Positions 1 through 43,841 of a stretch of DNA of 43,841 bases are shown here, piece after piece. A program made the translations under genes and the position numbers. Origin of the DNA: Candidatus Peregrinibacteria bacterium (lineage in GTDB: Bacteria; Patescibacteriota; Gracilibacteria; UM-FILTER-43-11); assembly GCA_030618315.1 (NCBI GenBank), contig JAUXDO010000001.1, forward strand, positions 1 through 43,841. The letters are read 5' to 3'. Position 1 is the first letter of the stretch. Every line of letters starts with the position of its first letter. A model generated the notes under the pieces. The model made no database searches, had not been told where the DNA came from, and was given only the letters and a program-made list of their open reading frames with translations.

Positions 1-138
1 GATAAATTAGAAGTTCAACCGGACAATGTAGATGTATTGGAACAGCCAAAGGATAGAAAGATTGCTACATTAATGACGTGTACACCAGTTGGCACAGCAT
101 TACGCAGATTAATCATAAAGGCTGAAGAAATCAGCTAA
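1..138 (+). CDS. Sortase-family transpeptidase, C-terminal fragment (5' end outside window)
   Basis: Frame 1 is open from base 1 to TAA at 136-138. The translation ...KIATLMTCTPVGTALRRLIIKAEEIS has the sortase TLxTC catalytic-Cys motif followed by the conserved Arg. Confidence 0.55.
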   Translation, partial: DKLEVQPDNVDVLEQPKDRKIATLMTCTPVGTALRRLIIKAEEIS

Positions 139-169
139 TAAGTAATTATACCTATTTGAACAAATAATA

Positions 170-193
170 CCCGTACAAGATACATTGTACGGG
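170..193 (+). terminator. Short GC hairpin after the sortase stop (cccgtaca / tgtacggg)
   Basis: 8-bp perfect stem at 170-177 / 186-193, followed by ATTT. The U-tract is weak. Confidence 0.4.
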
Positions 194-220
194 ATTTAAG
201 ATTGAACTTAAACTTCCCTA

Positions 221-310
221 TTTCTGATTTCGGATTTCAGATTTGTGATTCCTATTCCAGATTCTGAAATGTAACATGTTAATCTGAAATCAGAATTCAG
301 AAATCAGAAA
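221..310. repeat. Heptad-periodic palindrome, 'tgaaatc/cagaaat' family copy 1
   Basis: Arms 221-248 (tttctgatttcggatttcagatttgtga) and 283-310 (tctgaaatcagaattcagaaatcagaaa) are imperfectly complementary. It lies between the convergent sortase and ftsA genes. The arms resemble those at 31411-31583 and 36567-36704. Confidence 0.75.
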
Positions 311-313
311 TAA

Positions 314-1552
314 TTAAACTTTCATTATTCCGATAACTTTTCTAAGTGCTTTCTGAATTACAGTCTCGTCCCCTGCCAAATCAATACCCAAATTTACAAG
401 AGCTAGTGGTGTAATGTCCTGTTGATCTTTAACTTTTTTAGTTTCATCGATTATGTTGCCAAGGTCATTTGGATGAATAAAGCTCGCTTGAGGAGTGCGT
501 GCAAAATGTAGTTTTTTATACCATTTTGTGTTATTCAGAGCATCTTTTATCTCAGGTAAATGTGTTCCGCCCCCGCAAAGCAGTATTTTGGATGGAAGAA
601 CGTCGAGATCTTTAAATTCAGAAAGAGCAAGTATTACACCTTCAATCCAAATTTCTGTGTCGTCTTTAATAATATCACTGATTATTTTTTTGGATTTCTG
701 CTCCAGCTTATCCGCGGTATATGAGATCTTAAGTTTTTCGGCTTCCTGAAATGAAATATTCAATTCTACAGCTAATCTTTTTGTAAATGTCCTTCCTCCG
801 ATTGCATACATTTTTGTACCCACGACTGATCCATTTGATACTACAGCAATGTCTGTTGTTCCTCCGCCTACATCAATAAATATAGCTGACATACTTCCGC
901 CGTCCTCAAAATCAAGACATCTGGAAAGTGCGTATGGTTCTGAAATAATACTGAGTAAATCAAGTTCCAGTTCATCTGCAATACTTTGTAATGCGCTGAA
1001 GTGAACTAGTGGGGCAAATGAGTTAAATATTGACATCTGAACTTCCTTACCCTGAAAACCGAGCGGATTGGTGACTTTGTAACCATCAATTTTTACATCT
1101 ACTATCGCGGTATTAACAAGCTTTACATCTATTTCAGGATAACCTGTTTCTTCACTTAATTGTTTCCTTACTTCAGCGAAAGCTCGCCATTGCAGTTTGT
1201 GAACAATGTTTCGCAATTCTGATAGATTGATTTTCGCGTCGTGCTCATCTCTTTTATATTTGATTGTAGATGTGGCTCCTTTTACAAATTCACCGGCTAT
1301 ACCCATTACCATTTGTGTCGGCTGTAATTCGGCCTCATGGGCAGCCAATCTGATAGCTTCTTTGCAGTTATGTACAACACTCGCAATATCGGTTACAACA
1401 CCGTTTTGGATATCCCCCAATCTCTGACGTATTTTACCAAGCCCGCGAACAGCTGCACGTTTACCGATTATCTCCCCTCCCGCACTTTGCTTTTCTTCAA
1501 TTGTAAAAACCGCAGCTTTTACGATTTCGGTTCCAATGTCCAGTGCGAGAAT
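314..1552 (-). CDS. ftsA: Cell division protein FtsA (actin-like ATPase); proposed non-canonical ATT start
   Basis: The track ORF 314..1420 starts at a TTG. The same frame stays open up to 1657 and encodes ...ILALDIGTEIVKAAV (phosphate-1 DIGT motif) upstream of that TTG. There is no in-frame ATG/GTG/TTG between 1423 and 1657. AAGGAG (1559-1564) lies 6 nt before an in-frame ATT (1550-1552). A second actin-fold motif, DVGGGTTD, is present. Confidence 0.75.
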   Translation of the reverse strand: MLALDIGTEIVKAAVFTIEEKQSAGGEIIGKRAAVRGLGKIRQRLGDIQNGVVTDIASVVHNCKEAIRLAAHEAELQPTQMVMGIAGEFVKGATSTIKYKRDEHDAKINLSELRNIVHKLQWRAFAEVRKQLSEETGYPEIDVKLVNTAIVDVKIDGYKVTNPLGFQGKEVQMSIFNSFAPLVHFSALQSIADELELDLLSIISEPYALSRCLDFEDGGSMSAIFIDVGGGTTDIAVVSNGSVVGTKMYAIGGRTFTKRLAVELNISFQEAEKLKISYTADKLEQKSKKIISDIIKDDTEIWIEGVILALSEFKDLDVLPSKILLCGGGTHLPEIKDALNNTKWYKKLHFARTPQASFIHPNDLGNIIDETKKVKDQQDITPLALVNLGIDLAGDETVIQKALRKVIGIMKV

Positions 1553-1580
1553 TGCCTGCTCCTTTGGTTTGCGTTTAAAT

Positions 1581-1617
1581 AGATTGAAGATTGAAGATTG
1601 AAAATTAAAGATTAAAG
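1581..1617. repeat. Tandem heptamer array (agattga x3, aaattaa, agattaa)
   Basis: Direct 7-nt periodicity with no local complementary arm. The same unit recurs at 7349-7380. Both arrays sit just upstream of minus-strand gene starts (ftsA, glyA). Confidence 0.7.
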
Positions 1618-2134: not shown

Positions 2135-2230
2135 ATTGTGGTCCAAGTTGTGGCTCAGGTTGTGGCTCAGGGTTGTGGTTCACCATTTGAGCCACCATTT
2201 GAGCCACGCGAAGTGGAGCCACTATTGGAA
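2135..2230. repeat. 12-nt-periodic palindrome between purA and the CYTH gene
   Basis: gttgtggctcag occurs twice in perfect tandem (2147-2170), with degenerate flanking copies. ccatttgagcca occurs twice in perfect tandem (2183-2206). tggctca pairs with tgagcca in each unit. Confidence 0.75.
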
Positions 2231-3618: not shown

Positions 3619-3646
3619 GTAGGGACGCGCCATGGCACGTCCCTAC
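3619..3646. repeat. REP-like GC-rich palindrome GTAGGGACG-N10-CGTCCCTAC
   Basis: gtagggacgcgccatggcacgtccctac. The same 9-nt outer stem recurs at 9676-9704. Confidence 0.75.
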
Positions 3647-4268: not shown

Positions 4269-4286
4269 TGTTTTACCTTACTTGTT

Positions 4287-4361
4287 AATAGCGGTTAGCG
4301 ACTAGCGGATAGCGGTTAGCTTATAAGGCTATTTTCTAGTCGCTAGCTACTAACCGCTATT
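4287..4361. repeat. 'tagcgg' palindromic element, copy 1 (75 nt)
   Basis: Left arm aatagcggttagcgactagcggatagcggttagc (7-nt tagcgNN units). Right arm ctagtcgctagctactaaccgctatt. It aligns end to end with 7381-7455, with most positions identical. Confidence 0.8.
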
Positions 4362-4366
4362 AAGTA

Positions 4367-6052
4367 TTATCTCATCCGACCGATCTCAACAATAGCTCTA
4401 TCTAATTGCTCATCTTTTGTAGTACTGGATGGATTTGCAATTTTTATATCAGGGATTATTCCATTTTCTTCAATATCCTGTTTTAGAGGCGTAAGCCATT
4501 TAGCTACAGTTAATTTGAGACTTGAGTTATCCACAAAATAATTAACCTCCTGAACAGAGCCTTTTCCAAAACTTGTTTCACCGACTATTTTTGCAATTCC
4601 AAAATCCTGAAGAGCACCGGCTACTATTTCAGATGCAGACGCGCTATTCTCGTTAATAAGTATCACAATCGGATAGTCAGAAAGTTCACCGTCACCAGTA
4701 CTGTATTGAGCATATTTGAAGTAATTGTATTGGATAGTTACAGATTCAGCTCCGGGTTTTAGCATGAAATCCAATATCTGTAACGCTGAATCGAGGAGAC
4801 CGCCCGGATTATCACGTACATCGATTATCAGATCTGTGATATTTGTATTGTTCTGAATGATTTCAACTACTTCTCTGAATTCACCTGGTGCATTCTGATT
4901 AAAATGTGAAAGTCCTATATACATAGTTTTTCCATTGTTTATTACTTCATATTCAATAGAACCTATTCTAATAACGTCACGAACAACATCAATAATCCTT
5001 GTACCGCCATTCCTCTTTATTGTGAGTTCAACAGTAGTTCCTTTTGGCCCCTTGATTAGATTAACTGCTTCGTAAAGAGTTTTGTCGCTAATATCAACAT
5101 CATCTACTTTTAGAATAATATCACCTGGCATAATACCTGCTCTTTCTGCCGGACTATCCGCAATCGGAGCTATGATTGCGAGCTGATTATTATCATTTAT
5201 TCCGATAAATGCTCCGATTCCCTCAATTTCACCGTCAAGGTCATCAGAGAATGCTGAGTTTTCTTCAGGATCTAAATAGGCTGAATATGGATCATTCAGT
5301 ATTTCTACCATCGCATTTATTGCCGCATCAGACATTTCCGATTGACTAAGTTCATCTCTATCTATGTAGCCAGAATTGATAATCTCCCAAGAACTTACAA
5401 TCTTTTGAAGATATAGGTCGAATTCCTGCTGAGTAGTTGTACTAGGTGAATCCAAATTTACCAAATCCATTTTGTAGATGATCATTGCTGCCTCAGCCCT
5501 TGCTACTCTTCTGTACATTCCTACATAGTCAGACTTCTGAGGTTCAATTAAACCTAAACTTAACGCTCGCATAATCAATGGAGCAAATGTTGTGTTTCTC
5601 TCGACATCAAGATACGGGATGCTCCCCTTGTATACTTTTGGGATAGGAATACTTTGTGAGTGAAAAACCAATTGTAACGCATTTATTAAAGTTAGTTTTT
5701 TGTATGGCTCCATTTTTGGTTCACGATCGGATATAATGCCTAACCTGATAGCTTCGGCGAAATAAGGTGCATACCAAGCATTATCCATTGTGTCTTCATA
5801 TGGAAGGCTGACACTTGAACCTGTTGTAAATTTAGGACTGTTTAATAATACTAAATATTTGATAAATTCAGCCTTTGAGATGATTATATCCGGATTGAAA
5901 TTCGTAGTATTTTTAAATACATCATTTCTTCTTAAATATTCAATCGCATAGAAATATTCTGATTCATTTGGAATATCGTCATATGCGTAAACTGCTTGAA
6001 ATGTTGTCAGTGCGAATATTGATAATATAATTGATGTTAGGAGTTTTTTCAT
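4367..6052 (-). CDS. S41-family C-terminal processing peptidase with signal peptide and N-terminal SLH-like repeats
   Basis: Signal-like N-terminus, a PDZ segment (GIMPGDIILKVDDVDI), and the S41 catalytic region NENSASASEIVAGALQD...GETSFGKGSVQ. Confidence 0.85.
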   Translation of the reverse strand: MKKLLTSIILSIFALTTFQAVYAYDDIPNESEYFYAIEYLRRNDVFKNTTNFNPDIIISKAEFIKYLVLLNSPKFTTGSSVSLPYEDTMDNAWYAPYFAEAIRLGIISDREPKMEPYKKLTLINALQLVFHSQSIPIPKVYKGSIPYLDVERNTTFAPLIMRALSLGLIEPQKSDYVGMYRRVARAEAAMIIYKMDLVNLDSPSTTTQQEFDLYLQKIVSSWEIINSGYIDRDELSQSEMSDAAINAMVEILNDPYSAYLDPEENSAFSDDLDGEIEGIGAFIGINDNNQLAIIAPIADSPAERAGIMPGDIILKVDDVDISDKTLYEAVNLIKGPKGTTVELTIKRNGGTRIIDVVRDVIRIGSIEYEVINNGKTMYIGLSHFNQNAPGEFREVVEIIQNNTNITDLIIDVRDNPGGLLDSALQILDFMLKPGAESVTIQYNYFKYAQYSTGDGELSDYPIVILINENSASASEIVAGALQDFGIAKIVGETSFGKGSVQEVNYFVDNSSLKLTVAKWLTPLKQDIEENGIIPDIKIANPSSTTKDEQLDRAIVEIGRMR

Positions 6053-7348: not shown

Positions 7349-7455
7349 ATTAAAGATTGAAGATTAAAGATTGAAGATTAAATAGCGGTTAGCGACTAGC
7401 GACTAGCAGTTAGCTTATGAAGCTATTCACTAATCGATAACTACTAATCGCTATT
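7349..7455. repeat. Heptamer array (gattgaa/gattaaa, 7349-7380) plus 'tagcgg' palindromic element copy 2 (7381-7455)
   Basis: 7381-7455, aatagcggttagcgactagcgactagcagttagc...actaatcgataactactaatcgctatt, is colinear with 4287-4361. The array matches the 1581-1617 unit. Confidence 0.8.
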
Positions 7456-7471
7456 TATTAGTTTTCAATTT

Positions 7472-8038: not shown

Positions 8039-8042
8039 ATTT

Positions 8043-8113
8043 GTAATTAGTAATTAGTAAATAGTAATTTAAACTGTAAAACTGTAATAATTACAAATTA
8101 CCAATTACTAATT
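8043..8113. repeat. Heptad-periodic palindrome (gtaatta units) overlapping the dnaX stop
   Basis: Left arm 8043-8070, gtaattagtaattagtaaatagtaattt. Right arm up to 8113, ...ttaccaattactaatt. The dnaX TAG stop is at 8108-8110, inside the right arm. Confidence 0.7.
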
Positions 8114-9598
8114 TCCAAAAACCTCTTTAGCCATTTCAGCCATATTGGAATCGTTAACATTTTCATCTTTTTTTAGAACTGTGTTTAGGGAAACTTTTTT
8201 CGTTTCGAGTTTTAAATTAATCTTATTACCAAGAACTGTTTCAAATGCCTTCTGCACAACAGCCTGATTTGAAGAATTGGCAATCTTATCCATAAATGTA
8301 CTTGAATTGAAAGAGAGATACAGCGTTCCATTTTCAAATTTAACAGGTTCGCTATCTACAAAAGACATTCGAACAAATGGTGTTTCAATATTATCGATTA
8401 TCCTCTGCCAATTCTCTTTAAATTCGTTTAAATCAAGTTCTGAAATTTCTTTGTTTTCAGCGCTCTCATCAGATTCAGAAGATTTGTCCGGTTTGATTTC
8501 AACTGCTTCAGGCTTCTGAACATTTTTTTCAACCTTTACCTGTTTTGCTTCAGTCTTTACTTCTGGCGACTCTATATTCCCTGATGTTCCAAAATTACAT
8601 GCTTTAACAACTGCAATCTCCAGTGCCAGTTGCGGAATTATTGCCTGAGTTATTTTTATCTTTGCATCTGAGAATATTTCAATAAATCCTATAACAGTCT
8701 GAACTTCTTCACTATTTGTTAGATTTATAAGCATCTGCTCTCTTAAATATGCAATTATATCTGTTGTAAATTGCTGAAGGCTATGCCCCTGGGCGTTAAT
8801 TTGATTAAGGATTTCAATTGCCTTTAGTGGCTTTCTTTGGAGTAGGCACTGGAAGAATTGTTCAACGTGAATCTGCCCCCCAAGGCCTAAGTTTTCAGCG
8901 ACTTTCTCATACTGTACAACTCCGTCCATTGTCATTTGCTCAAATAGACCTATTGCATCTCTTAGTCCCCCATTGGCGATTTTTCCTATCAGATTAAGTG
9001 CCTCTACATCTGCTTTTACATTTTCCTGCTCTGCAATTTCTTCCAGTCTTTTTACAATAGTGCTCTGATTGATGCGTTTGAAATTAAACTGCTGACACCT
9101 CGAAATAATCGTCTCAGGAATTTTGTGTACTTCTGTTGTAGCTAATATGAAATATGCGTGTGATGGCGGTTCTTCAAGTGTTTTTAAAAGTGCATTAAAC
9201 GCTTCTTTTGTCAGCATATGCACTTCATCAATGATGTAGACTTTAGATCTAGCCTGAGATGGCGCGAATACTATTTTTTCTCTGAGTTCCCGTATTTCAT
9301 CAATTCCTCTGTTACTTGCGGCATCAATTTCAATCAAATCAACAAGACGACCATTATTTATACCATCACAAATCTCACATTCATTACATGGTTCAAAATC
9401 ACTGGTCAGATTTGTACAATTTAGTGCTTTGGCAACAATGCGGGCTAATGATGTTTTACCCGTACCCCTTGGGCCGGAAAAAAGATAGGCATGCGTCATT
9501 GCATTATGCTTAAGAGCGTTCTGCAAAGTTGTAATCGCATGATCCTGGCCTACGAGGTTTTTAAAGTTAAATGGTCTGTATTTTAGATAAAGTGACAT
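8108..9598 (-). CDS. dnaX: DNA polymerase III subunit gamma/tau
   Basis: Walker A GPRGTGKTS, a zinc module CNECEICDG, the DEVHML box and SRCQ sensor motif. Confidence 0.9.
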   Translation of the reverse strand: MSLYLKYRPFNFKNLVGQDHAITTLQNALKHNAMTHAYLFSGPRGTGKTSLARIVAKALNCTNLTSDFEPCNECEICDGINNGRLVDLIEIDAASNRGIDEIRELREKIVFAPSQARSKVYIIDEVHMLTKEAFNALLKTLEEPPSHAYFILATTEVHKIPETIISRCQQFNFKRINQSTIVKRLEEIAEQENVKADVEALNLIGKIANGGLRDAIGLFEQMTMDGVVQYEKVAENLGLGGQIHVEQFFQCLLQRKPLKAIEILNQINAQGHSLQQFTTDIIAYLREQMLINLTNSEEVQTVIGFIEIFSDAKIKITQAIIPQLALEIAVVKACNFGTSGNIESPEVKTEAKQVKVEKNVQKPEAVEIKPDKSSESDESAENKEISELDLNEFKENWQRIIDNIETPFVRMSFVDSEPVKFENGTLYLSFNSSTFMDKIANSSNQAVVQKAFETVLGNKINLKLETKKVSLNTVLKKDENVNDSNMAEMAKEVFGN

Positions 9599-12021: not shown

Positions 12022-12088
12022 CGATTTATGATTTAGGATTTATGATTTACGACCTTAATCGTTAATCTTTAATCTTAAATCTTAATTA
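12022..12088. repeat. Heptad-periodic imperfect palindrome (gatttat/gatttag units vs ttaatc units)
   Basis: gatttat gatttag gatttat gatttac (12023-12050) is followed by cttaatc gttaatc tttaatc ttaaatc. The units are partly complementary (gattt/aaatc). It lies between rpsU and der. Confidence 0.55.
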
Positions 12089-12395: not shown

Positions 12396-12586
12396 TTCCA
12401 AATCTCAAATCCTAAATTCCAAACAACTTCAATATTCAAATTTCAATAAACAAACCGTACCTCTGAATGTGCGAATAATTATTCGCACATTCAGAGGATG
12501 TAATTAATTATATATTCCGTATTACATTTGAATTTTGAATATTGTACTTTGGATTTTGTTTGGAATTTAGGATTTGAGATTTGGAA
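12396..12586. repeat. MITE-like nested palindrome: 31-bp perfect terminal inverted repeats around a perfect 38-nt palindrome
   Basis: 12396-12426 ttccaaatctcaaatcctaaattccaaacaa is the exact reverse complement of 12556-12586. The core 12460-12497 cctctgaatgtgcgaataattattcgcacattcagagg is a perfect palindrome. The arms are heptad periodic. Confidence 0.85.
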
Positions 12587-14142: not shown

Positions 14143-14193
14143 ATTCAATATTGATTTTATATTTTAGATTTAGATTTGAAATCAATATTGAAT
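14143..14193. terminator. Bidirectional hairpin between convergent mltG and the 83-aa ORF
   Basis: 15-bp perfect inverted repeat attcaatattgattt (14143-14157) / aaatcaatattgaat (14179-14193). The loop contains tagattt repeats. Confidence 0.6.
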
Positions 14194-14504: not shown

Positions 14505-16574
14505 TTATTCTTGATAAGTAATCACAATACTCACACTGTCTGCCCCATCACCTTTTATGGTAAATGTATTATCACCGGACGTTAATGCCACTGTTTTTCG
14601 CCATTTTTCACTTCCGGGGATGTAGTCAGATAATACTTCATCATTTATATAGACTTTGGTTGTCCATTTGCCAACGTCTCCACCGATTACTAATTGGTCC
14701 AGAGTCGTACTGTATGAACCGGTAGTGGATGGCATTGTGATGGTCGGATTTCCCGATGTTCCGCTTTCTACATCAATGGTAATTGTTGCTGTTCCAAGCA
14801 CCTTACCGTCTTCGTCAAAAGCTTTTACAGTGAATTCATTTGCTTCACCAATTTCAAGATTTCCGAAACTACTTTTTGCTGAATATCGATAAGTCGTGTC
14901 CCCTTCTTCGAACAGGCTAAGTTTATAATCGTTTACTTCGACTGTAACAGTTCCTACTGGTACTGCGCCTTTAATATCGAATTCTGTTTCGGATGTTGTG
15001 AAACTTTCACCGCCATTTGGGTCAGTAATCGTTACACCGCCTTCGGATGTGGATGCAGGAACGGGCTCTGGCTCGTCAGCCTCATCCGCCTCTTCCGTGG
15101 ACGCAGGATCCTGCGTCCCTACAGCGTCATCATCGGATTCGGATTCGTCTTCTGATTCGGTTTCTGCCTCATCTACGGTTTCCTGCTCCAGAACTAATGT
15201 AATCGTTGCCACGTCACTTACATTACCTGCTTTGTCTTCAGCGAATACTTCGTATTCATTTTCTCCAACTTCCAGATTTCCGTAGGCTGTTTTTGCGTAA
15301 TACGCAAATTTCTTACTTCCAGGTACGTATTTGCTTAGGCGATAGTCATTAACAATCACCACATATGTATCCTTGCTGACTGTACCCTCGATGATCTGTT
15401 CGATATCTTCAATTGTAACTGTCTCATCATTTACACCCGGATCAACTATTATAGGTGTTGCTGGCGGGGTTTTGTCGTAAGTTATTATGAACGAATCAAG
15501 TTCGGTTCTTACTCCTGATAAATCTTCAGCTTCAATTTTAAGTTCATTTTCCCCCTCTACTGCTAATGTTAATTTGCTGATTTTCCACTTATTCTTATCA
15601 AGATTACTGGCTTTTTTTCCGTGCACATAAACAGCTTGAACTTTTTCCGGATCATAAAGTCCTTCTATTGAAATAGTTGACGATGCAGTGGCACTATTTG
15701 GCGAAGGTTTTGTAATTGAAACCATTCTATCGGGATTGATTGTGATGTCATCATCATCTTCATCGTCCGTAGACGCAAGATCTTGCGTCTCTACGTCCTC
15801 TTCGTCTGATTCTTCGAATGCTGTAATTGCGCCATCTTTCTGCACATTCCACCTGTACCATGCGGATGTTTTGAATGAATCACTAAGAGCAAAAATAAGA
15901 TCCGGCTCAATACCCTGATTTATTTCAGCAATTATCTCGTCATCAATAACTAATTGCTGACCAACTCCTACATTTACTGTTTTTATAATCTCATCGTCAA
16001 ATTTAATGCTGACCTGAGCTGTCCCGTCTAACACATAAACTGTTCCCGGTGCCTCAACAGCAATATCTCCGCCTCTTGAATCAACAGCTAGTAAATCAGT
16101 TGAAATTGTAAATCTTGAATCCGGATTACTAATCCGTTCAATTTTTGTCCATACCTGACCATCGACCAGTGAAACTTCAATGACAATAGCTTCATTTTTC
16201 TTCTTTAACTGAATAAGATCGACTTGCGAATTGTTATCCACGCGAACAATACTTTGATCGGTAAAAGTAAGCGATACTCTGCCATCTGAACCTGTCTTTA
16301 GCTTTTCACCTTTATACAGATAAATGTTGTCAGGGGCATTATCCCAATCACTGCTTCCAACGGTCATTGCTTTTGCACTGCCGTTTTCGATGTTTAAAAA
16401 GACCTTTTCAGTAAAAGTATTTCTATTGTCATCAATAAAAACCTGATTAAGCGTACGCCATCCAAAAATTATTATTGCAATAATTACAACAATAATAAAA
16501 AAAGGCATAAAGTAATCGCGATTGCGTTTTCTTGGTGCTCGGTTTGGGTAATACATAGTAATATAATTTAGCAA
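14505..16574 (-). CDS. Membrane-anchored FecR-domain protein with Ig-like repeats and acidic linkers
   Basis: N-terminal TM helix. FecR-like segment (GSDGRVSLTFTDQSIVRVDNNSQVDL). Repeated roughly 90-aa beta-rich modules (..YVPGSKKFAYYAKT..GNLEVGENEYEV.A.D.AGN..). D/E/T-rich linkers. Confidence 0.6.
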   Translation of the reverse strand: MLNYITMYYPNRAPRKRNRDYFMPFFIIVVIIAIIIFGWRTLNQVFIDDNRNTFTEKVFLNIENGSAKAMTVGSSDWDNAPDNIYLYKGEKLKTGSDGRVSLTFTDQSIVRVDNNSQVDLIQLKKKNEAIVIEVSLVDGQVWTKIERISNPDSRFTISTDLLAVDSRGGDIAVEAPGTVYVLDGTAQVSIKFDDEIIKTVNVGVGQQLVIDDEIIAEINQGIEPDLIFALSDSFKTSAWYRWNVQKDGAITAFEESDEEDVETQDLASTDDEDDDDITINPDRMVSITKPSPNSATASSTISIEGLYDPEKVQAVYVHGKKASNLDKNKWKISKLTLAVEGENELKIEAEDLSGVRTELDSFIITYDKTPPATPIIVDPGVNDETVTIEDIEQIIEGTVSKDTYVVIVNDYRLSKYVPGSKKFAYYAKTAYGNLEVGENEYEVFAEDKAGNVSDVATITLVLEQETVDEAETESEDESESDDDAVGTQDPASTEEADEADEPEPVPASTSEGGVTITDPNGGESFTTSETEFDIKGAVPVGTVTVEVNDYKLSLFEEGDTTYRYSAKSSFGNLEIGEANEFTVKAFDEDGKVLGTATITIDVESGTSGNPTITMPSTTGSYSTTLDQLVIGGDVGKWTTKVYINDEVLSDYIPGSEKWRKTVALTSGDNTFTIKGDGADSVSIVITYQE

Positions 16575-16700
16575 TTAACATTTATCATTTATCATTTTTG
16601 TTTTTTGTTTTTTTGCTCACAAATTCTACTTTAGAGGTGTGTTTTTGTCAATTAATGAACGAGATGACGAGATGATTGGAGATACTACAATCCGCCAGAA

Positions 16701-19806: not shown

Positions 19807-19830
19807 AATAAAATTTATGATTAATGATTT

Positions 19831-20322
19831 ATGAAAAATAATAAAGAAATCTTTAGGAGTACACTTATATGGTTAATGTTTTCATTTCCCTTTGGCTACC
19901 TAGTAGGTGTAATTCTTGTAACCTTAATATTTATACCTAGCATGATAGAAGCTAGTGCAGTGGCGGGATTAGCAGAGTCTATGTTCGGTTTAGCTATAAT
20001 GTATAAAACAGGGTTCGTATTTAGTCTTGGATTATTCGTCGCAATGGCACCAATATTTTTATTGATAACTAATTTCTGGTTAAGAATCTCAAGGAAAAGA
20101 AAAAGCCTTGATAAGTCGTGGATTTACATTGTATTGCTTACTCTTTTAATCGGTATTATAAGCGCATTTACCTTGAATACTATAATGAATACTATAACTG
20201 GCTTTAGCTCCAATTATCAGCCAATATCCATAATATCCATTACTGGATTTTTTGGAGGATGGTTCGGCACACTTCTGCCAAGAATATTTATAAAAAAACT
20301 TAGGCCGGGTAAACTGTGCTAA
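19831..20322 (+). CDS. Hypothetical multi-pass membrane protein
   Basis: 163 aa with about four hydrophobic helices and no recognised motif. Confidence 0.5.
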   Translation: MKNNKEIFRSTLIWLMFSFPFGYLVGVILVTLIFIPSMIEASAVAGLAESMFGLAIMYKTGFVFSLGLFVAMAPIFLLITNFWLRISRKRKSLDKSWIYIVLLTLLIGIISAFTLNTIMNTITGFSSNYQPISIISITGFFGGWFGTLLPRIFIKKLRPGKLC

Positions 20323-24446: not shown

Positions 24447-24448
24447 GG

Positions 24449-24568
24449 AACGGATAGGTAAACGGATAGGTAAACGGATAGGTAAACGAATTGAAGAACG
24501 TATAGGAAAACGGATAGAAAAACAATTCGTCCAACAATACGTCCATCAATTAGTCCAACAATACGAAT
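24449..24568. repeat. Ten tandem 12-nt units filling the hrcA-ruvC gap
   Basis: aacggataggta occurs 3 times perfectly (24449-24484). Then come aacgaattgaag, aacgtataggaa and aacggatagaaa. The unit type then switches to aacaattcgtcc, aacaatacgtcc, atcaattagtcc and aacaatacgaat. The array ends 1 nt before the ruvC ATG. Confidence 0.8.
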
Positions 24569-24569
24569 T

Positions 24570-25076
24570 ATGAATTATTATTTAGGAATAGATCCAGGGC
24601 TCTCCGAAGTCGGTTTCGGCATTATTAAGTCTGATGGTAATGAGACTGAATTTGTTGACTGTGGGATTATTAAAACTACTCCTAAAAATACTTTTGCCGA
24701 GAGATTATCGATTATTAAAAAGGATATGGAGGAAATTCTTGCTATGCATAAATACGAAGCTGTTGGAATTGAGGAATTGTTTTTCGCAAAAAATGTTACC
24801 AATGCTATCAAGGTTGCTCATGCACGAGGAATAATCGTGCAGACGGTTCACGATTTACGATTTCCGATTTACGAGTTTACTCCATTGCAGGTCAAAAATA
24901 ATATCTGCGGTTATGGCGGAGCGGATAAATTGATGGTGCAGGAGATGGTTAAACGGCTCCTTAATCTAAAAGTCCTGCCAAAGCCTCATGATGCGGCGGA
25001 TGCGCTTGCGATTGCGATGATAGCTGCCCAAACTCAAAACTCAAAACTCAAAACTCTAAACCCAAAATATACCTAA
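24570..25076 (+). CDS. ruvC: Holliday junction resolvase RuvC
   Basis: LGIDPG at the N-terminus, EELFF, and the HDAADALAIA catalytic C-terminal motif. The last roughly 14 aa are encoded by a repeat arm. Confidence 0.9.
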   Translation: MNYYLGIDPGLSEVGFGIIKSDGNETEFVDCGIIKTTPKNTFAERLSIIKKDMEEILAMHKYEAVGIEELFFAKNVTNAIKVAHARGIIVQTVHDLRFPIYEFTPLQVKNNICGYGGADKLMVQEMVKRLLNLKVLPKPHDAADALAIAMIAAQTQNSKLKTLNPKYT

Positions 25077-25125
25077 ATATTTACCATTCAACAAATTTGA
25101 GTTTTGAATTTTGAGTTTTGAGTTT
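25030..25125 (+). terminator. Heptad-periodic hairpin (caaaact units); the 5' arm lies inside the ruvC coding sequence
   Basis: 25030-25056 aaactcaaaactcaaaactcaaaactc pairs with 25096-25125 tttgagttttgaattttgagttttgagttt (1 mismatch). The loop contains the ruvC stop (25074-25076). Confidence 0.7.
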
Positions 25126-26641: not shown

Positions 26642-26643
26642 AA

Positions 26644-35579: not shown

Positions 35580-35617
35580 AAAAATTCTTCACTATGTTAA
35601 GTGGAGTTTTTTGTTAG

Positions 35618-35675
35618 TGGCTATTACCTCCCGCTAAGCGGGATGATAGGGGTTCGATCCCCCTTACCCGCTCCA
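35618..35675 (+). pseudogene. tRNA-Gly 3' fragment with the anticodon arm replaced by a 15-nt palindrome
   Basis: 35618-35628 is identical to tRNA positions 16-26. 35629-35643 is tcccgctaagcggga. 35644-35675 is identical to tRNA positions 44-75, including CCA. There is no 5' acceptor strand. Confidence 0.8.
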
Positions 35676-35771
35676 ATAGCAATCTGAATAACGAATTGAG
35701 AACAAATGATTGTTTGTTTTTGGCTTATTTCTGATTTACTATTTCTTAAATAAAAAAATATTTAAAAAACC

Positions 35772-35969: not shown

Positions 35970-36077
35970 ATTTGTTTGTATTATAAAATAAACTGTATGA
36001 AGTATAGCACATAGGATGTATTTAACCATAGCTAAATTTATTTTTTATTAGTATAAAATATTACTAGCTATCGCTCA

Positions 36078-36115
36078 ATTTAAAATTTGTAATTTAAAAT
36101 TTAAAATTTGTAATT
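36078..36115. repeat. Tandem heptamer array (tttaaaa / tttgtaa units)
   Basis: atttaaaatttgtaatttaaaatttaaaatttgtaatt. The related unit aaattgt/aaatttg is used at 42011-42133. Confidence 0.7.
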
Positions 36116-36158: not shown

Positions 36159-36566
36159 ATGACCGCTGTTAAACCAAATCAAATTGAGAATAAACTTGTT
36201 GAGCTTATGGGGCTTAAAGACAAGCTTTTGGACTCAAAAGAAATGTTAAAATCATTTAAAATAAAGTCGGATAGGCTTAAGGATTTACAGACTGCCTACA
36301 AGGATCTTAGAGATCAGATTTCTGAAGAAAAGGATAAAATTGAGAATGAATTTTACGAGGATAAAGATTATGAAAAAGCAAAAAATGATGACTTAACTTA
36401 TAAGAATCAAATAAAGGAAAAAAGTTCAGAGCTTCGTGAGATCATGAAAGAGGTTGATATTGATAAACAACTTGCGACTTATGATTACAACATCAAAGGT
36501 GAAAAACTTAAGATGCAGGTCGAAAGAGTTGTGAAGGTTTATATTAATGGGAGAGAGGAGAAGTAA
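36159..36566 (+). CDS. Hypothetical coiled-coil protein
   Basis: 135 aa, K/E/D-rich with heptad-like composition and no recognised motif. Confidence 0.5.
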   Translation: MTAVKPNQIENKLVELMGLKDKLLDSKEMLKSFKIKSDRLKDLQTAYKDLRDQISEEKDKIENEFYEDKDYEKAKNDDLTYKNQIKEKSSELREIMKEVDIDKQLATYDYNIKGEKLKMQVERVVKVYINGREEK

Positions 36567-36704
36567 TTCAGATTTCGGATTTCTGATTTGTGAATCGATT
36601 TGAGATTTTTCATTTCGTATTTTTCGTATAATTAATACTGCTCACAAAATGCAACATCTAGAATAAAAAATATGAATCTGAAATCAGAAATCTGAAATCT
36701 GAAT
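36567..36704. repeat. 'tgaaatc' family element, copy 3 (138 nt)
   Basis: Arms ttcagatttcggatttctgatttgtgaatc (36567-36596) and gaatctgaaatcagaaatctgaaatctgaat (36674-36704) are complementary apart from a few mismatches. It fills the convergent gap exactly, from stop to near stop. Confidence 0.8.
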
Positions 36705-36710
36705 TGTACT

Positions 36711-39635: not shown

Positions 39636-42041
39636 TCAATTTGTGTTTTCAATAATCTTCTCCAAAAACTCCGTTGGATACAGCTGAGGTTTTTCTTCGA
39701 GTGCCTGATGATAAATTACAGTGGATGGCGTTAAACCAGGAGTAGTATTTGCTTCGATAATGATTAGCTCACCTGTTTTTATGTGCATAAAAGCATCTAT
39801 TCGGCAGTAACCCGAAAACCCCATGGCTTTTGCAACTTTTTCCACTCTCTCCATCGCCTTTTTAACAGCGGATGGCTTTACATAAGGGGTTGGAGGTGGA
39901 GTAATATTCACGCCAGTCCCCCCTTGAAACTTTTCTTCCAGACTTAGGATATTGCCAACTGCTACGGTTATACTTGGTGACATCGCTTTCATCTTACCTT
40001 TTCGTTCCAAAAGACCCATTGTTATTTCAATCCAATTATTCCTTGTTTGCCATTTGAGTTTATTTTTGATTACGCGGACTTTGTCGGTTGTAATAAATTG
40101 CTCAAACATTATGTTCTTCATTTTCTGATGAGGCATATCGATAATCCCATGTTGCTTTGTTAATTTTCCTTCAGGAATCATAGGAGACGCTTTTAGAGCG
40201 TATTTTAAATAAACCTCCAGATCTTTTGGTGTGTAAAGCCTTGCAATGCCCGAACTGCACCCATCATCAACGGGTTTTACGATTATTGTTCGGCTTTCAA
40301 GTTCTTGTGCCAATCCTCTCCAATACCTTTTGTAATCGACTGGTTTAAACTTTTTAAACTGAATCATTTTTTCCACTCTTTTGAACGCTGAGCTAATGCC
40401 TTCTTTTTTTAGATGCTTAATAGCTTCACCCGTTTTATATTTATCTATACCAAGTTTTGATGCTACTCCGCCAGAACCATTAAATGGAACTTTTGCTTTT
40501 TCCAGCATTTTCTGCAGAGTGCCGTCTTCCCCAATCCCGCCATGTAAACCAATAAATACATATTTAGATTTTTTGATGAAGTCTTTGAGTGTCATCTTTT
40601 CCGGGAAGAACCACGGTTCTGAAATATCACCTTCATCCGGACTTAATTTTTCAATTACGCGTTCTATTAAAGCTCGCAACCTATCTTCATCATCTTTTGC
40701 ATTAACACAATTTTTCATAATCTCTTCTACAGTATGATTCAATGTAAGAGAATACGGCAGATGCCAAACATTATGATTCATATCGAGCAGGTATGGTTCC
40801 GGTTTGTATTTATCTGAACGCTTGAGCTTGAGCCATACGTTTGTACCGGACATGACGGAAACTTGGCGCTCGGCTGTCTTGCCTCCGAAGAGGACGTTGA
40901 TTTGTGATTTGTGATTTTTGATTTGTGATTTCAAATTCTCAATTCTCAAATCACAATTCTCAAATTTTATACCGTATCGTCGACAGGCACTCTTCACAAT
41001 ATAAAGCAAAACGTCCCTATGGCTCATTCCTATTCTGGATGACTGCATAAAAAGAAAACTGTTTTGCTCCATTCCGCTTATCGGATTGAAGTCTGAAAAC
41101 CATAAATTTCCATCCGGCATCAACCACCCATCGAACCTTGCAAAGTTTCTCATTCCGAGAAGTTTAAATAATTGCTCTGACTGGATTTGAATCCTTCTGA
41201 TTACATCTTCAGAAAAACGCGGCGGACAGTGATATGTTACCTGTCTTGATGCTAAATATTTTTTTCTATAATCGAATATCTGATGGTCACTATAATCTAG
41301 CTCCATTTCTGTAGGAAGGACTGCTACCGGCATACCAAAGCGATTCTCTAATATGATTACAGTAAACTCAACCCCATTACAAAAAGGTTCAACAACTAAC
41401 CTTGTATCTACTCTTTTTGAGAAAAGATCATGAGCAACTTTTAGGGCCTCATCTACTGTTGAAACTGAACTTACTCCAATGCTTGAACCTCCTGTTGCAG
41501 GTTTCACTACTGCACGTTTGATTTTATGGTCCTTAAAAAACTTATTGATTATCTGTTTGTGATTTTTTAAATGACTTTTTAATAAAACAGATGGAAGAGT
41601 ATAGAATCCATTATCTCTTATAAACTCATTCGCATTAAATTTATCAAATGCCCGTTTACATGCGTCTTCCGGTGAGCCAATACATGGAATTTTGTATCTT
41701 TTAAGAATGCGCTGGATTTCCCCGTCCTCACCAAATGGGCCGTGCATTACAGGAAATGCAAGGTCGACTGTTTTGAGATATTTACCTAAGGCAGATTTGG
41801 ATAATGGCTTTCCTGATGAGTGTAATTTAAAATCAAAATCTGATGGAGTATTTGAATAAAGCTGGCTTCTGGAAATCAGATAGGCATTTTTTTTATGGTC
41901 GAAATAGATTGGAAGTATTTCTATCTCCTCTGAATGTAAGTGGTCGCAAACGGAGCGTGCGGAGTTGAGGGAGATACCTCTCTCCAATGATGGACCGCCA
42001 CACAACAAAGCAATTTTCAATTTACAATTTACAATTTTCAT
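39636..42041 (-). CDS. ddl: Tandem-fused D-alanine--D-alanine ligase-family protein (two complete ATP-grasp Ddl-like modules)
   Basis: Module 1: KIALLCGGPSLERGISLNSA..., VKPATGGSSIGV, ARFDGWL..DGNLWFSDFNPISGM. Module 2: INVLFGGKTAERQVSVMSG..., VKPVDDGCSSGI, CRIDAFM...ELIIIEANTTPGLTPSTV. They are joined by ENCDLRIENLKSQIKNHKSQ. Confidence 0.85.
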   Translation of the reverse strand: MKIVNCKLKIALLCGGPSLERGISLNSARSVCDHLHSEEIEILPIYFDHKKNAYLISRSQLYSNTPSDFDFKLHSSGKPLSKSALGKYLKTVDLAFPVMHGPFGEDGEIQRILKRYKIPCIGSPEDACKRAFDKFNANEFIRDNGFYTLPSVLLKSHLKNHKQIINKFFKDHKIKRAVVKPATGGSSIGVSSVSTVDEALKVAHDLFSKRVDTRLVVEPFCNGVEFTVIILENRFGMPVAVLPTEMELDYSDHQIFDYRKKYLASRQVTYHCPPRFSEDVIRRIQIQSEQLFKLLGMRNFARFDGWLMPDGNLWFSDFNPISGMEQNSFLFMQSSRIGMSHRDVLLYIVKSACRRYGIKFENCDLRIENLKSQIKNHKSQINVLFGGKTAERQVSVMSGTNVWLKLKRSDKYKPEPYLLDMNHNVWHLPYSLTLNHTVEEIMKNCVNAKDDEDRLRALIERVIEKLSPDEGDISEPWFFPEKMTLKDFIKKSKYVFIGLHGGIGEDGTLQKMLEKAKVPFNGSGGVASKLGIDKYKTGEAIKHLKKEGISSAFKRVEKMIQFKKFKPVDYKRYWRGLAQELESRTIIVKPVDDGCSSGIARLYTPKDLEVYLKYALKASPMIPEGKLTKQHGIIDMPHQKMKNIMFEQFITTDKVRVIKNKLKWQTRNNWIEITMGLLERKGKMKAMSPSITVAVGNILSLEEKFQGGTGVNITPPPTPYVKPSAVKKAMERVEKVAKAMGFSGYCRIDAFMHIKTGELIIIEANTTPGLTPSTVIYHQALEEKPQLYPTEFLEKIIENTN
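40897..40966. repeat. Heptamer arrays inside the Ddl-Ddl linker coding sequence
   Basis: gatttgt gatttgt gattttt gatttgt gatttca, followed by aattctc aattctc aaatcac aattctc aaatttt. Only ttgtgattt/aaatcacaa is truly complementary. Confidence 0.7.
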
Positions 42042-42133
42042 TTAACAAATGTAATTATTCGCAAGGATTGTACATTAAATTTTTGGCTTAAGCAAAGTGT
42101 TTTAAAATTTAAAATTGTAAATTGTAAATTTGT
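42011..42133. repeat. Heptad-periodic palindrome straddling the ddl start codon
   Basis: 42019-42038 aatttacaatttacaatttt is the exact reverse complement of 42111-42130 aaaattgtaaattgtaaatt (20 bp). The left arm encodes Ddl residues 2-8 (KIVNCKL). Confidence 0.8.
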
Positions 42134-42169: not shown

Positions 42170-42197
42170 TTGACAAATATTAAAAAATTGTTAAAAT
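42170..42197 (+). promoter_or_regulatory. Sigma70-type promoter with extended -10
   Basis: TTGACA (42170-75), a 16-nt spacer ending in TGT, then TAAAAT (42192-97). Confidence 0.5.
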
Positions 42198-42259
42198 TAG
42201 AATCTCGTGAATGTCGTATTGGCTAATAGTGGTCATACGATGATCGAGACAACAACAAA

Positions 42260-42277
42260 GGTATTGATATCAATACC
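42260..42277 (+). promoter_or_regulatory. Perfect 18-nt palindrome in the 5' leader, immediately before the SD
   Basis: ggtattgatatcaatacc is followed by acttttGGAGGGaaaATG. Nearly the same hairpin recurs in the terminator at 42492-42508. Confidence 0.55.
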
Positions 42278-42292
42278 ACTTTTGGAGGGAAA

Positions 42293-42469
42293 ATGCCTAG
42301 ACCTAGTAAACTGCCGTTCGGGAAACATGAATCGGATAATTTTAAAAAGTCCGCAACTGTAAAGATTGCGAAAAGTCAGCACAAGTGTCCCAGATGCGGG
42401 ACAATGCTTGGAAATATAAATGACCACAGCAATTGTCCTACATGCAAGGCAAAGTTTAAATTTTTCTAG
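42293..42469 (+). CDS. Small zinc-ribbon protein (58 aa; below the ORF-track cut-off)
   Basis: MPRPSKLPFGKHESDNFKKSATVKIAKSQHKCPRCGTMLGNINDHSNCPTCKAKFKFF. A GGAGGG SD lies 3 nt upstream. CPRC...CPTC pairs. It has its own promoter and terminator. Confidence 0.55.
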   Translation: MPRPSKLPFGKHESDNFKKSATVKIAKSQHKCPRCGTMLGNINDHSNCPTCKAKFKFF

Positions 42470-42487
42470 TCACCTCCCCTCCTTTTA

Positions 42488-42516
42488 GAAAGGTATGATA
42501 TCAATACCTTTTTTCC
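42488..42516 (+). terminator. Rho-independent terminator
   Basis: gaaaggtat-gatatca-atacctttt followed by a T-run. Confidence 0.65.
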
Positions 42517-42585
42517 CTACATATTTTTTTTCTACATGATAAAATACTTTCGCAATAATTATGAATTATCAATTACAAATTACGA

Positions 42586-43841
42586 ATGAAAATAAATCAA
42601 AAAATCTTCCGTGCATATGACATCAGAGGCACCTATCCCGACCAGCTTAATGCGGAGAGTGCTGAGTTGATTGGGAAGGGGTTTGGGACCTATTTATATA
42701 GGAAATTCAAAACTCAAAATTCAAAACTCAAAGTGGTTGTGGGGATGGATTGCCGTACTCATTCTCTTGAGCTTCATAAGGCTTTTGTAAATGGACTACT
42801 ATCAACTGGATGCGATGTGACAAATATTGACAAATGCCCGTCTCCTTATCTCTATTTTGTGAATACTGAGGGTAAATTTGATGGAGGTTGTGTAATTACT
42901 GCCAGTCATAATCCTAAGGAATATAATGGGTTTAAGTTGATAACTCATAATGCGCATGCGGTTTTTGGTGATGAATTGCAGAAGGTCTATCAGATTATTG
43001 AGAAAGGTGAATTTGCGACTGGAAATGGGAAAATGATCAGTGCTGATTATTATGATTTTTATCTACAAAAGATTAAAAGTATCTTCACTTTCTCTCGTCC
43101 TCTAAAATTAGTTATTGATACTGGTAACGGTATTGCCGGTATTATGTATCCCAAAATCCTAAAGGAGTTGGGGCATGATGTCGTCGAATTATATACGGAA
43201 TGTGACGGTACTTTTCCAAATCATGAAGCTGATCCGATCGTTGAGGAAAATGTAGAGGATTTGAAGAAAATGGTCGTAGATGAAAATGCGGATCTTGGCA
43301 TTGCATTTGATGGCGATGGTGACAGATGCGGTGTTATTACGGAAAAAGGTGAGTTTGTTAATGCTGACAAATTGTTAATGCTTCTCACTAAAGATGTTTT
43401 AAGCAGACATCCTGATAAATCAGTTGTATTCACTGTTTCTAACTCTCAATCCCTATTCGATCTTGTGAAGGAGTGGGGCGGAAAACCTGTGATGTGTGAG
43501 GTGGGTCATTCTTATGTTGAGGATGCTATGACTGCGCATGATGCCATTTTAGGAGGTGAACAGTCAGGTCATTTCTTTTTGCCCGAGGATTATTACAAAT
43601 ATGACGACGCATTAATCACGTCATGTCGTGTTCTCAAAATACTGGCTGATTCAGATAAAACTATTTCAGAGCTATTTGAGCAATTTCCTAAAACATATGA
43701 TCAGCCGGAGATGAGACCGTTTTGCCCTGATGAAAAAAAGTTTGAAATACTGGAACAGGTCAAAAAATACTTTAAAGACAAATATCCAAATACAACTATC
43801 GACGGAATACGTATGGATTTTGGGAATGGCGGTTGGGCTGG
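42586..43841 (+). CDS. Phosphomannomutase/phosphoglucomutase-family protein (3' end outside window)
   Basis: MKINQKIFRAYDIRG..., the active-site loop TASHNPKEYNGFK and the metal loop FDGDGDR. The frame is open to the window end. Confidence 0.9.
   Translation, partial: MKINQKIFRAYDIRGTYPDQLNAESAELIGKGFGTYLYRKFKTQNSKLKVVVGMDCRTHSLELHKAFVNGLLSTGCDVTNIDKCPSPYLYFVNTEGKFDGGCVITASHNPKEYNGFKLITHNAHAVFGDELQKVYQIIEKGEFATGNGKMISADYYDFYLQKIKSIFTFSRPLKLVIDTGNGIAGIMYPKILKELGHDVVELYTECDGTFPNHEADPIVEENVEDLKKMVVDENADLGIAFDGDGDRCGVITEKGEFVNADKLLMLLTKDVLSRHPDKSVVFTVSNSQSLFDLVKEWGGKPVMCEVGHSYVEDAMTAHDAILGGEQSGHFFLPEDYYKYDDALITSCRVLKILADSDKTISELFEQFPKTYDQPEMRPFCPDEKKFEILEQVKKYFKDKYPNTTIDGIRMDFGNGGWA
42705..42733. 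repeat. 'caaaact' heptamer repeat embedded in frame in the mutase gene
   Basis: 42708-42732 caaaactcaaaattcaaaactcaaa is the exact reverse complement of 25096-25120. It encodes KTQNSKLK. Confidence 0.85.

Follow-up and report, generated by a model that had tools for sequence, protein, structure and literature searches.

We analysed a stretch of 43,841 nucleotides from a Candidatus Peregrinibacteria bacterium (assembly GCA_030618315.1, contig JAUXDO010000001.1; below, the window), the intergenic DNA of which is rich in palindromes whose arms are built of tandem 7-nt units. These elements have heptad arms, belong to dispersed families, turn over fast between relatives and encroach on open reading frames (ORFs), and their arm design is statistically tied to genes for small four-helix-bundle proteins, with sequence links for two families. 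We take them to be heptanucleotide hairpins of the kind known as short tandemly repeated repetitive (STRR) sequences or long simple sequence repeats (LSSR), best read as ORF-less miniature relatives of a four-helix-bundle cassette of the intervening-sequence (IVS) type, a reading to which we assign a probability of about one half.

It has been known since 2007 that no other long simple repeat is as over-represented in many bacteria as heptanucleotide repeats, without an accepted cause, and in the window they fill much of the intergenic space even in a streamlined genome of the candidate phyla radiation (CPR). Cyanobacteria, Chloroflexota, spirochaetes and CPR bacteria all have examples of the arm design around four-helix-bundle genes, which joins two puzzles and offers a testable protein–DNA/RNA pair.

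The window is ordinary bacterial chromosome DNA with 37% G+C and carries purA, glyA, dnaX, der, secA, hrcA, ruvC, a secE-nusG-rplK-rplA cluster, the genes for PBP2 and a Ddl-Ddl fusion and one tRNA-Gly. Among named relatives, metagenome-assembled genomes (MAGs) of Candidatus Peregrinibacteria come closest, and the SecA of the window is only 50–58% identical to the best matches in the species-representative genome set. Syntenic relatives were reached via homologues of 5-formyltetrahydrofolate (5-FTHF) cyclo-ligase and PBP2, which gave the loci L082 and L087 (both from GCA_016932505.1), L084, L085, L086, L088, L089 and L090.

Periodic hairpins in the intergenic DNA

Period-7 arrays were collected from the table of Tandem Repeats Finder (TRF) and from our own lag scan, palindromes from an inverted-repeat scan, and dinucleotide shuffles served as controls for both periodicity and folding. 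Within the intergenic DNA (6.2 kb, 14% of the window) the fraction of matches at lag 7 is 0.368 compared to 0.290 after shuffling (z +14.7), and the lags 14 (z +8.2), 21 (z +4.9) and 12 (z +3.8) are raised as well; the original prediction, made from the letters of the window alone, had proposed such a shuffle control at lags 7 and 12 for the whole genome. The coding DNA shows the 3-periodicity of codons only. Depending on the threshold the lag scan gave 9–23 period-7 runs (23 arrays in the fuller count) and zero runs at periods 3–6, 8–11, 13 and 15, and 20 dinucleotide shuffles did not give a single period-7 run. The TRF table holds 34 rows of period 7, while its rows of 14 and 21 describe the same arrays. 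Although so little of the window is intergenic, 17 of the 23 arrays are located there. Their units are AT-rich and free of G3 runs, and about half of the arrays hold a GATT/AATC core, an enrichment over chance by our own estimate. Individual elements fold with z-scores of -3 to -15 against shuffles, and the array density of 5 per 10 kb compares with about 0–0.5 in the more distant L088, L089 and L090.

A census was made of the 34 gaps of at least 39 nt. The strict cut of at least three near-perfect 7- or 12-nt units was passed by 13 of them (~40%), compared to an average of 0.18, and never more than 1, among shuffled gaps; read loosely, about 19 of the 34 contain some periodic array, and about 13–14 a true palindrome with periodic arms. 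The original prediction had placed such palindromes in most gaps, which is an overstatement. Its observation that the design recurs between convergent, divergent and tandem gene pairs was borne out by the census, as was the variation of the unit sequence by locus, which extends to variation by genome. An independent assembly from Logan, called for as a further check, is base-for-base identical to the window over 28663–31489, and elements of this type are present in relatives too; they do not stem from misassembly. Thus, the periodic-hairpin feature is real and statistically overwhelming. Rfam at the gathering threshold matched only the tRNA-Gly in the window, with no RNA family for the elements and no rRNA, and a CRISPR identity was rejected as the spacer-repeat layout is absent.

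The elements are given below in their order along the window (z, folding z-score).

219..312, TTTCWGA/TTTCGGA-family palindrome in the convergent gap between the sortase and pilM-like genes (z -3.8/-4.0)
1581..1617, unpaired AGATTGA/AGATTAA array located between the CYTH stop and the pilM-like start (TRF, lag scan)
2138..2218, palindrome of the 12-nt units GTTGTGGCTCAG / CCATTTGAGCCA in the purA-CYTH gap (z -6.4)
4285..4363, TAGCGGT-family palindrome, copy 1, in the ctpB-maf gap (z -4.1/-7.7)
7349..7382, unpaired ATTAAAG/ATTGAAG array directly upstream of glyA (TRF)
7379..7457, TAGCGGT-family palindrome, copy 2, in the gap between 5-FTHF ligase and glyA (inverted-repeat scan, fold)
8040..8118, GTAATTA/AATTAC palindrome occupying the entire gap between dnaX and 5-FTHF ligase (TRF, inverted-repeat scan, fold)
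12022..12088, GATTTAT/TTAATC palindrome in the rpsU-der gap (TRF, fold)
12396..12586, palindrome of 191 nt in the divergent rpsU/ybaB gap, its arms being degenerate heptads (AATCTCA, AATCCTA and others; z -15)
14143..14193, hairpin with central GATTTTA/GATTTAG units in the convergent mltG/orf83 gap (z -5.5)
16562..16613, unpaired TATCATT/CATTTAT and TTTTTGT arrays in a divergent gap (TRF)
19813..19834, short ATTTATG array in the secA-orf163 gap (TRF)
24447..24569, 12-nt periodic element, copy 1 (AACGGATAGGTA... / AACAATTCGTCC...), in the hrcA-ruvC gap (weak fold, z -0.7)
24850..24880, plus strand, ACGATTT x4 array within ruvC, the protein length being unchanged
25030..25125, AAACTCA/TGAGTTT palindrome whose left arm (25030–25076) is the C-terminal tail of the ruvC ORF (z -9)
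26642..26740, second copy of the 12-nt periodic element, located between TPR and orf187
29473..29509, ATGATTT/ACGATTT array in the rplK-rplA gap, adjoining a conserved leader block (TRF)
31411..31583, wide TTTCWGA-family element just past the SLOG stop and upstream of secE, with 29-nt arms 115 nt apart (z -9.9)
32189..32252, AAGATTC/GAATTTT palindrome in the divergent SLOG/PBP2 gap (TRF, fold), absent from L086
32312..32397, weakly periodic palindrome in the PBP2 leader (inverted-repeat scan, fold)
36077..36109, unpaired AATTTAA array (TRF)
36565..36705, TTTCWGA-family element in the convergent gap between orf135 and a K-channel gene (z -5.9/-7.1)
40898..40965, minus strand, TGATTTG/AATTCTC palindrome encoding the linker of the Ddl-Ddl fusion
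42011..42131, CAATTTA/AAATTGT palindrome whose left arm (42011–42041) forms the first codons of the ddl ORF (inverted-repeat scan, fold)
42557..42587, AATTACG-type array ending in the PGM/PMM start codon (TRF)
42703..42732, plus strand, AAACTCA/AAATTCA array in the PGM/PMM gene, in a loop between GFGTYL and KVVVG

TRF and the inverted-repeat scans thereby recovered every position that had been named beforehand, namely the heptad palindromes at 221–310, 8043–8113, 12022–12088, 12396–12586, 25030–25125, 31411–31583, 32189–32252, 36567–36704 and 42019–42130, the 12-nt case at 2135–2230 and the unpaired arrays at 1581–1617, 7349–7380 and 36078–36115. The dispersed families, the entry of arrays into ORFs and the tie of the arm design to four-helix-bundle genes had been overlooked.

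We also agree with the earlier view that the elements are not ordinary rho-independent terminators. This identity was rejected because their stems are AT-rich, U-tracts are absent (a T-run stands on the sense strand in 0 of 6 hairpins between tandem minus-strand genes) and a consensus terminator scan, which gave no excess over shuffles (12 vs 13.1; 15 vs 12.7), does not have the elements among its matches. The sigma-70 promoter consensus is not enriched either, and its matches do not include the elements. A separate, conventional hairpin lies at 170–193 in the sortase/pilM gap and is conserved in L084.

The arms of homogeneous arrays pair nearly as well after a slide of 7 nt. For the diverged elements at 12396–12586 (0.75 vs 0.51), 4285–4363 and 7379–7457 the exact mirror register is clearly the best, and the second arm therefore appears to be a mirror copy of the first. 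Several elements belong to families. The two TAGCGGT elements are 82% identical to each other, loop included, and the two 12-nt elements at 24447 and 26642 are 77% identical; the unit family of 1581..1617 recurs at 7349–7382, and in L082 and L084 the gap orthologous to that of 1581..1617 is filled by related arrays. The three window copies of the TTTCWGA family have a common order of variant units and share the inner non-periodic motif GAWTCCCATTYTAGA with copies in other contigs. The full TTTCWGA element including this motif recurs in low-GC metagenome contigs in other gene contexts, with 5 of 8 cases in convergent gaps. One such match is L117 642–737, which is 83% identical to the 219..312 element over 96 nt in a different gene context; L117 as an ortholog of the sortase/pilM gap was rejected after tblastn gave zero matches.

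A metagenome scan for TTTCWGATTTCGGATTTCWGA, an (ATTTCNG)n array, gave at least 120 contigs with a GC content of 0.31–0.71. We dropped the idea that (ATTTCNG)n is a special universal unit, as other arrays in the matching contigs have many different units, and the number of contigs need not be special because there are roughly 1200 heptad classes by our own estimate. No preference for an orientation or distance relative to start and stop codons was seen in 80 metagenome loci with TTTCWGA arrays, a weak test given the crude ORF calls.

Arrays also enter genes. The Ddl-Ddl linker is an (AAATCAC)n array with 5 units in the window (KSQIKNHKSQI) and 11 in L087, a 42-nt in-frame difference. The fusion itself joins two D-Ala-D-Ala ligase (Ddl) domains in one protein of ~800 aa (window 39636–42041; L087 16569–19001) and is kept across the clade, with 790–810 aa in three relatives and a linker written by the heptad array. 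The PGM loop between GFGTYL and KVVVG consists of AAACTCA units in the window and of a GAAGACC array in L087, while the ACGATTT array of ruvC is also present in the ruvC of L090. In L082 the end of the 5-FTHF cyclo-ligase gene (10555–10571) overlaps an array. As arrays create, extend or fuse ORF ends they can mislead gene callers, and they also break assemblies.

Four-helix-bundle genes between heptad arms

On the contig L176 two TTTCWGA arms 475 nt apart enclose an ORF of 123 aa, which belongs to PF05635 ("23S rRNA intervening sequence protein") and also to TIGR02436 (four helix bundle protein). When the ORFs of every stored locus were searched with a profile, three more four-helix-bundle genes came up (two in L116, one in L134), each located between inverted heptad arrays and one of them with the quite different unit AAGGCGA/TCGCCTT. 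Homologues on viral contigs, found by protein similarity alone, had flanking heptad arrays by eye in 5 of 5 distinct loci, and so did plasmid homologues in 10 loci (Nostoc, Planktothrix, Gloeocapsa, Euhalothece, Chlorohelix, Treponema and others), with arms such as the following.

Gloeocapsa plasmid: TAGATTT / gene / CTAAAAT
Planktothrix plasmid: CCCCAAT and CGTAAAT / gene / ATTTACG
Nostoc punctiforme plasmid: GGAGGTC / gene / GACCTCC
Euhalothece plasmid: CAGTTAC / gene / ACTGGTC x13

An automated test found arrays on both flanks for 13 of 21 four-helix-bundle genes compared to 2 of 58 control genes (Fisher 6e-8); if the two flanks also had to match in inverted orientation, the numbers were 11 of 21 and 0 of 58, and by eye about 19 of the 21 genes are positive. 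The positive cases come from cyanobacteria, Chloroflexota, Treponema, viral and metagenome contigs and a related Peregrinibacteria genome. Within 30 kb of a Treponema plasmid all six period-7 arrays adjoin the four-helix-bundle gene.

Two families of the window are connected to such cassettes by sequence. The end of the L176 cassette, arm and inner motif, matches window 31540–31583 with 91% identity over 44 nt, and the L176 protein is encoded on a contig of 461,782 nt that also bears Peregrinibacteria homologues of window genes. A cassette arm of L230, the four-helix-bundle homologue in GCA_016932505.1 and thus in the close relative with the best sampling, matches the solo array at 16566–16594 with 93% and an ORF-less palindrome of L085 with 96% identity. 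A further homologue, L232, is located in a Patescibacteria MAG and has the arms ATTTCTG / CAGAAAT.

In the plasmid loci L218–L227 the four-helix-bundle genes stand between partner genes (cas2/cas1, RND adaptor/permease, DUF1156/HEPN and drmD/MmeI), a placement that fits an inserted cassette leaving its host operon undisrupted. In the Gloeocapsa plasmid L228 (9629–9847) AATCAAA and ATTTTAG arrays lie within the DUF1156 gene beside the four-helix-bundle cassette.

To our knowledge, the "23S rRNA intervening-sequence" four-helix-bundle protein has been without a function since the 1990s. Our literature searches found no paper stating a general link of four-helix-bundle genes to heptamers, and nothing on Peregrinibacteria repeats or on the array sequence. 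PF05635 is also the family of Avd, the accessory protein of diversity-generating retroelements (PMC10053308).

Turnover between relatives and possible origins

Orthologous gaps were compared for presence and absence, as had been suggested, and filled next to empty gaps turned out to be common among relatives (123 vs 6, 112 vs 37, 173 vs 14, 69 vs 20 and 98 vs 29 nt). The hrcA-ruvC gap measures 6 nt in L087 and the TPR-orf187 gap 37 nt, with the element absent; the gap between dnaX and 5-FTHF ligase is empty with 20–22 nt in L082 and L085, and the ctpB-maf gap of L082 has only 29 nt. Often the orthologous gap carries a periodic hairpin too, with other units. The purA-CYTH gap has a different 12-nt palindrome of unrelated sequence in L084 and a 7/14-nt palindrome in L082, and the rpsU-der gap exists in four different versions, the one in the window being homologous to L082 5899–5969 (83%) and those of L084 and L085 having other units. 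At the secE-SLOG site the 173-nt element of the window faces 1.7 units in L086, only ATTTCAGATTTC, and a short palindrome of TTTGAGA units in L087. The conserved leader in the rplK-rplA gap is identical between relatives while the adjacent array differs, with other units in L086 and L087. Window and L086, which share 89% identity in PBP2, have a conserved block upstream of this gene followed by quite different palindromes of ~95 nt, the L086 counterpart of 32312..32397 being an unrelated one of about 95 nt (ACGAAGCA... units). Thus, copies are gained, lost and replaced quickly between relatives, and their copy number shifts by whole units.

A full cassette consists of two inverted heptad arrays with a small gene for a four-helix-bundle protein (PF05635/TIGR02436, S23p or Avd-like) between them, and the window copies would be its ORF-less forms, since a PF05635 ORF is absent from the window. 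By analogy with the Coxiella IVS, the transcribed arms would pair into a long stem that may be cut by RNase III, which would part adjacent messages from each other without ending transcription. The arms could lengthen and shorten by replication slippage in 7-nt steps, and inverted duplication or template switching may have made one arm the mirror image of the other. A bolder version, which we consider doubtful, takes heptad hairpins and solo arrays as non-autonomous copies of a pan-bacterial cassette whose sole gene, the pentameric Avd-like S23p, would recognise, protect or propagate the arrays; if true, it would cover the heptanucleotide excess, the origin of the 23S rRNA IVS and the function of an orphan protein family that is very common.

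Several results weigh against descent from the cassette. A jackhmmer search over all ORFs found no four-helix-bundle gene in the window, and only two window families (TTTCWGA and CATTTAT) are tied to cassettes by sequence, the rest by design alone; of these two only TTTCWGA is palindromic in the window, CATTTAT being a solo array. The automated test was positive for part of the four-helix-bundle genes, not for all, and the flanking arrays are direct instead of inverted in Bernardetia and partly in Anabaena cylindrica. Folding is very weak for the two 12-nt elements at 24447 and 26642. Among 21 hairpins between co-directional genes, taken from the window and from L082, L084, L085, L086 and L087, the sense RNA fold is the more stable one in only 5 (Wilcoxon p 0.009, favouring antisense), which gives no support to selection for stem stability in the message and is a main weakness of the cassette reading; the higher stability of the antisense fold in 16 of the 21 suggests a transcription-linked transition bias on one strand. 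The link could also run in reverse, if heptad hairpins were there first and four-helix-bundle genes prefer them as insertion sites.

According to the main rival the hairpins arise from slippage alone, as a pure mutational by-product of intrinsic 7-nt slippage and template-switch palindromes without function or mobility, and four-helix-bundle genes merely insert, lodge or survive there. We regard this as rather unlikely, even if much agrees with it: 7 is almost the sole array period among 80 unrelated bacterial loci fetched with SecA (one of which, from Hydrogenedentota, shows the same palindromic design), arrays within ORFs keep to tolerant loops and linkers with frame-keeping steps, a shift of 7 nt hardly impairs the pairing of the arms, the L086 arms seem to grow from the conserved flank ..CACGAA, there is no strand bias towards the message, and polymerase slippage has been published as an explanation (Mrazek 2007, via a citing paper). 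In-place slippage, however, cannot yield whole elements with non-periodic loops that recur at unrelated sites and in other organisms, and the tie to one gene family is very strong. That the host selects the elements as RNA structures (terminators without U-tract, operon insulators or 3'-end stabilisers), kept at junctions despite sequence drift, appears improbable to us. It would explain why the rpsU-der, purA-CYTH and 5-FTHF ligase-glyA junctions hold a periodic hairpin in 3–4 of 4 relatives with differing units, why 5 of 8 TTTCWGA copies are in convergent gaps and why the fold z-scores are very low; yet close relatives have nothing in many of the orthologous gaps, several elements are located in divergent promoter regions or within ORFs, U-tracts are missing and the sense RNA is less stable than the antisense. 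With an occupancy near 50% the fully occupied junctions are, by our own estimate, not clearly above expectation.

Classical MITEs (miniature transposable elements with inverted repeats), moved by a transposase that is encoded elsewhere and recognises the reiterated subterminal heptads, would share the terminal inverted repeats, the dispersed multi-copy families, the presence or absence between relatives and the preference for gene ends. We hold them to be distinctly improbable, as no transposase is found in the window or beside any copy, the only ORF between matching arms is the four-helix-bundle gene, and it is difficult to see how many different transposases would all have led to one 7-nt period across so many phyla. 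A direct target-site duplication was not seen at either TAGCGGT copy, though the flanks are AT-rich and the copies few, and the TTAA/TAAA ends there belong to the inverted repeat. Binding sites for a nucleoid or regulatory protein would account for the regular spacing and for the GATT/AATC core, but as the unit sequence changes with locus and genome and no candidate protein was identified, we think that this has very little chance of being correct. Descent from an IVS-type cassette remains the reading that we prefer.

Other features of the window and comparison with known systems

The window contains further repeats that are not heptad-periodic. Perfect G+C-rich hairpins of the repetitive extragenic palindromic (REP) type with a GTAG tag, GTAGGGACG...CGTCCCTAC, are found at 3619–3646 and 9676–9704 and in L085 at 4537–4564 (cf. 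PMC3733652), with variants at matching or nearby gaps in L084, L085 and L087; they are a repeat class separate from the heptad elements. A MITE-like element of ~217 nt (10410–10626) in the convergent DsbA/der gap shows nested inverted repeats, with 27-nt ends that are 96% complementary and an inner 40-nt pair, and no further copy was seen in any stored locus. The tRNA-Gly (35505–35576) is flanked by two partial copies of itself (35430–35500 and 35610–35680), both of which have the palindrome CCCGCTWAGCGGG in place of the anticodon arm. This 13-mer is also present twice downstream of ybaB (12981–12993 and 13060–13072), which makes 4 window copies vs 0 expected, and in a 294-nt insert between nusG and secE of L086.

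In the rplA-rplJ gap a 39-nt tandem repeat of 2.5 copies (28457–28552) and a long imperfect hairpin (28545–28648) occupy the site expected for the L10 leader, with no Rfam match for either. Between nusG and rplK an ORF of ~200 aa (29968–30579) without Pfam match keeps its position in L086, L087, L088 and L090. Upstream of hrcA the 527-nt gap holds two copies of the motif GG(C/T)GGGCGTATAGC..GACCG (23480–23640), which is not CIRCE and may be a structured RNA or an operator. The pilM-like protein, truncated by gene callers in relatives, has the conserved N-terminus KPKEQAILALDIGTE (1583–1660), and as no in-frame ATG, GTG or TTG exists between it and the CYTH stop, its start codon may be non-canonical.

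Of the known systems, STRR sequences of cyanobacteria were reportedly described by Mazel and co-workers in 1990. Heptanucleotide repeats are over-represented in many bacteria, for which polymerase slippage has been put forward (Mrazek 2007, as summarised in PMC4679880), and in Xanthomonas about 185 GGGAATC arrays include 70–75 convergent pairs able to form stem-loops (PMC4692102). The original prediction knew of no described class with this arm design; as heptanucleotide repeats and the inverted pairs of Xanthomonas are published, and stem heptamers likewise for the Coxiella IVS, the class is not new but partly known. In the window we find at least three head-to-tail 7-nt units per array, an excess over chance and over other periods, a mostly intergenic location and changes by whole units, and as for LSSR and STRR several dispersed loci per unit and variable copy numbers. 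In contrast to LSSR and STRR the window arrays are mostly inverted, hairpin-forming pairs, many units coexist in 44 kb, and the host is a CPR bacterium with a small genome and not a cyanobacterium, Xanthomonas or Burkholderia with a large one (as summarised in PMC4679880 and PMC4692102). With Xanthomonas the window shares two close heptad arrays on opposite strands and a single or paired type that is conserved between related genomes while the length varies, but there it is one G-rich, quadruplex-capable unit, whereas the window units are AT-rich, without G-runs and locus-specific.

REP sequences, REPINs and MITEs are likewise dispersed repeats, short and palindromic, that stand at the ends of genes, in many cases in convergent gaps and sometimes intragenically, and whose presence differs between relatives (PMC3733652, PMC3116915). 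REPs differ by G+C-rich stems of 20–40 bp, a GTAG or CGTC tag and RAYT transposases, while the window arms are tagless tandem heptads. TAACTGA arrays are common to Beggiatoaceae, cyanobacteria and Bacteroidetes with no known mechanism of spread (PMC4679880) and resemble the window arrays as heptad arrays across distant phyla that often stand directly beside start codons; they have another unit and are direct (1 inverted set among 170), and no TAACTGA array is in the TRF table of the window. Rickettsia palindromic elements are said to be inserted in frame into genes (Ogata and co-workers, in 2000). They share with the window that palindromic repeats are tolerated in coding sequence and add peptide segments, but they measure 100–150 bp and are not heptad-periodic, whereas the coding copies in the window are short arrays in linkers, loops and ORF ends.

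Relevant for the proposed origin are the IVS of 23S rRNA genes, which are known from Leptospira (Ralph and McClelland 1993, as cited in PMC4990558) and Coxiella burnetii. The Coxiella IVS holds an S23p ORF, terminal inverted repeats in a 28-bp stem and, in its 5' region, 2–3 strain-variable GACAGAT heptamers, and it is excised by RNase III with a cut at the start of the first repeat (PMC4990558). The window copies differ in that they are located between or inside protein genes and not in helix 25 or 45 of 23S rRNA, have no ORF, and would be cut by RNase III only by analogy, whereas this cleavage has been demonstrated for Coxiella and other rRNA IVS. What both have in common is a long stem of terminal repeats, variable tandem heptamers and the existence of a full form with a PF05635 gene next to short forms without an ORF.

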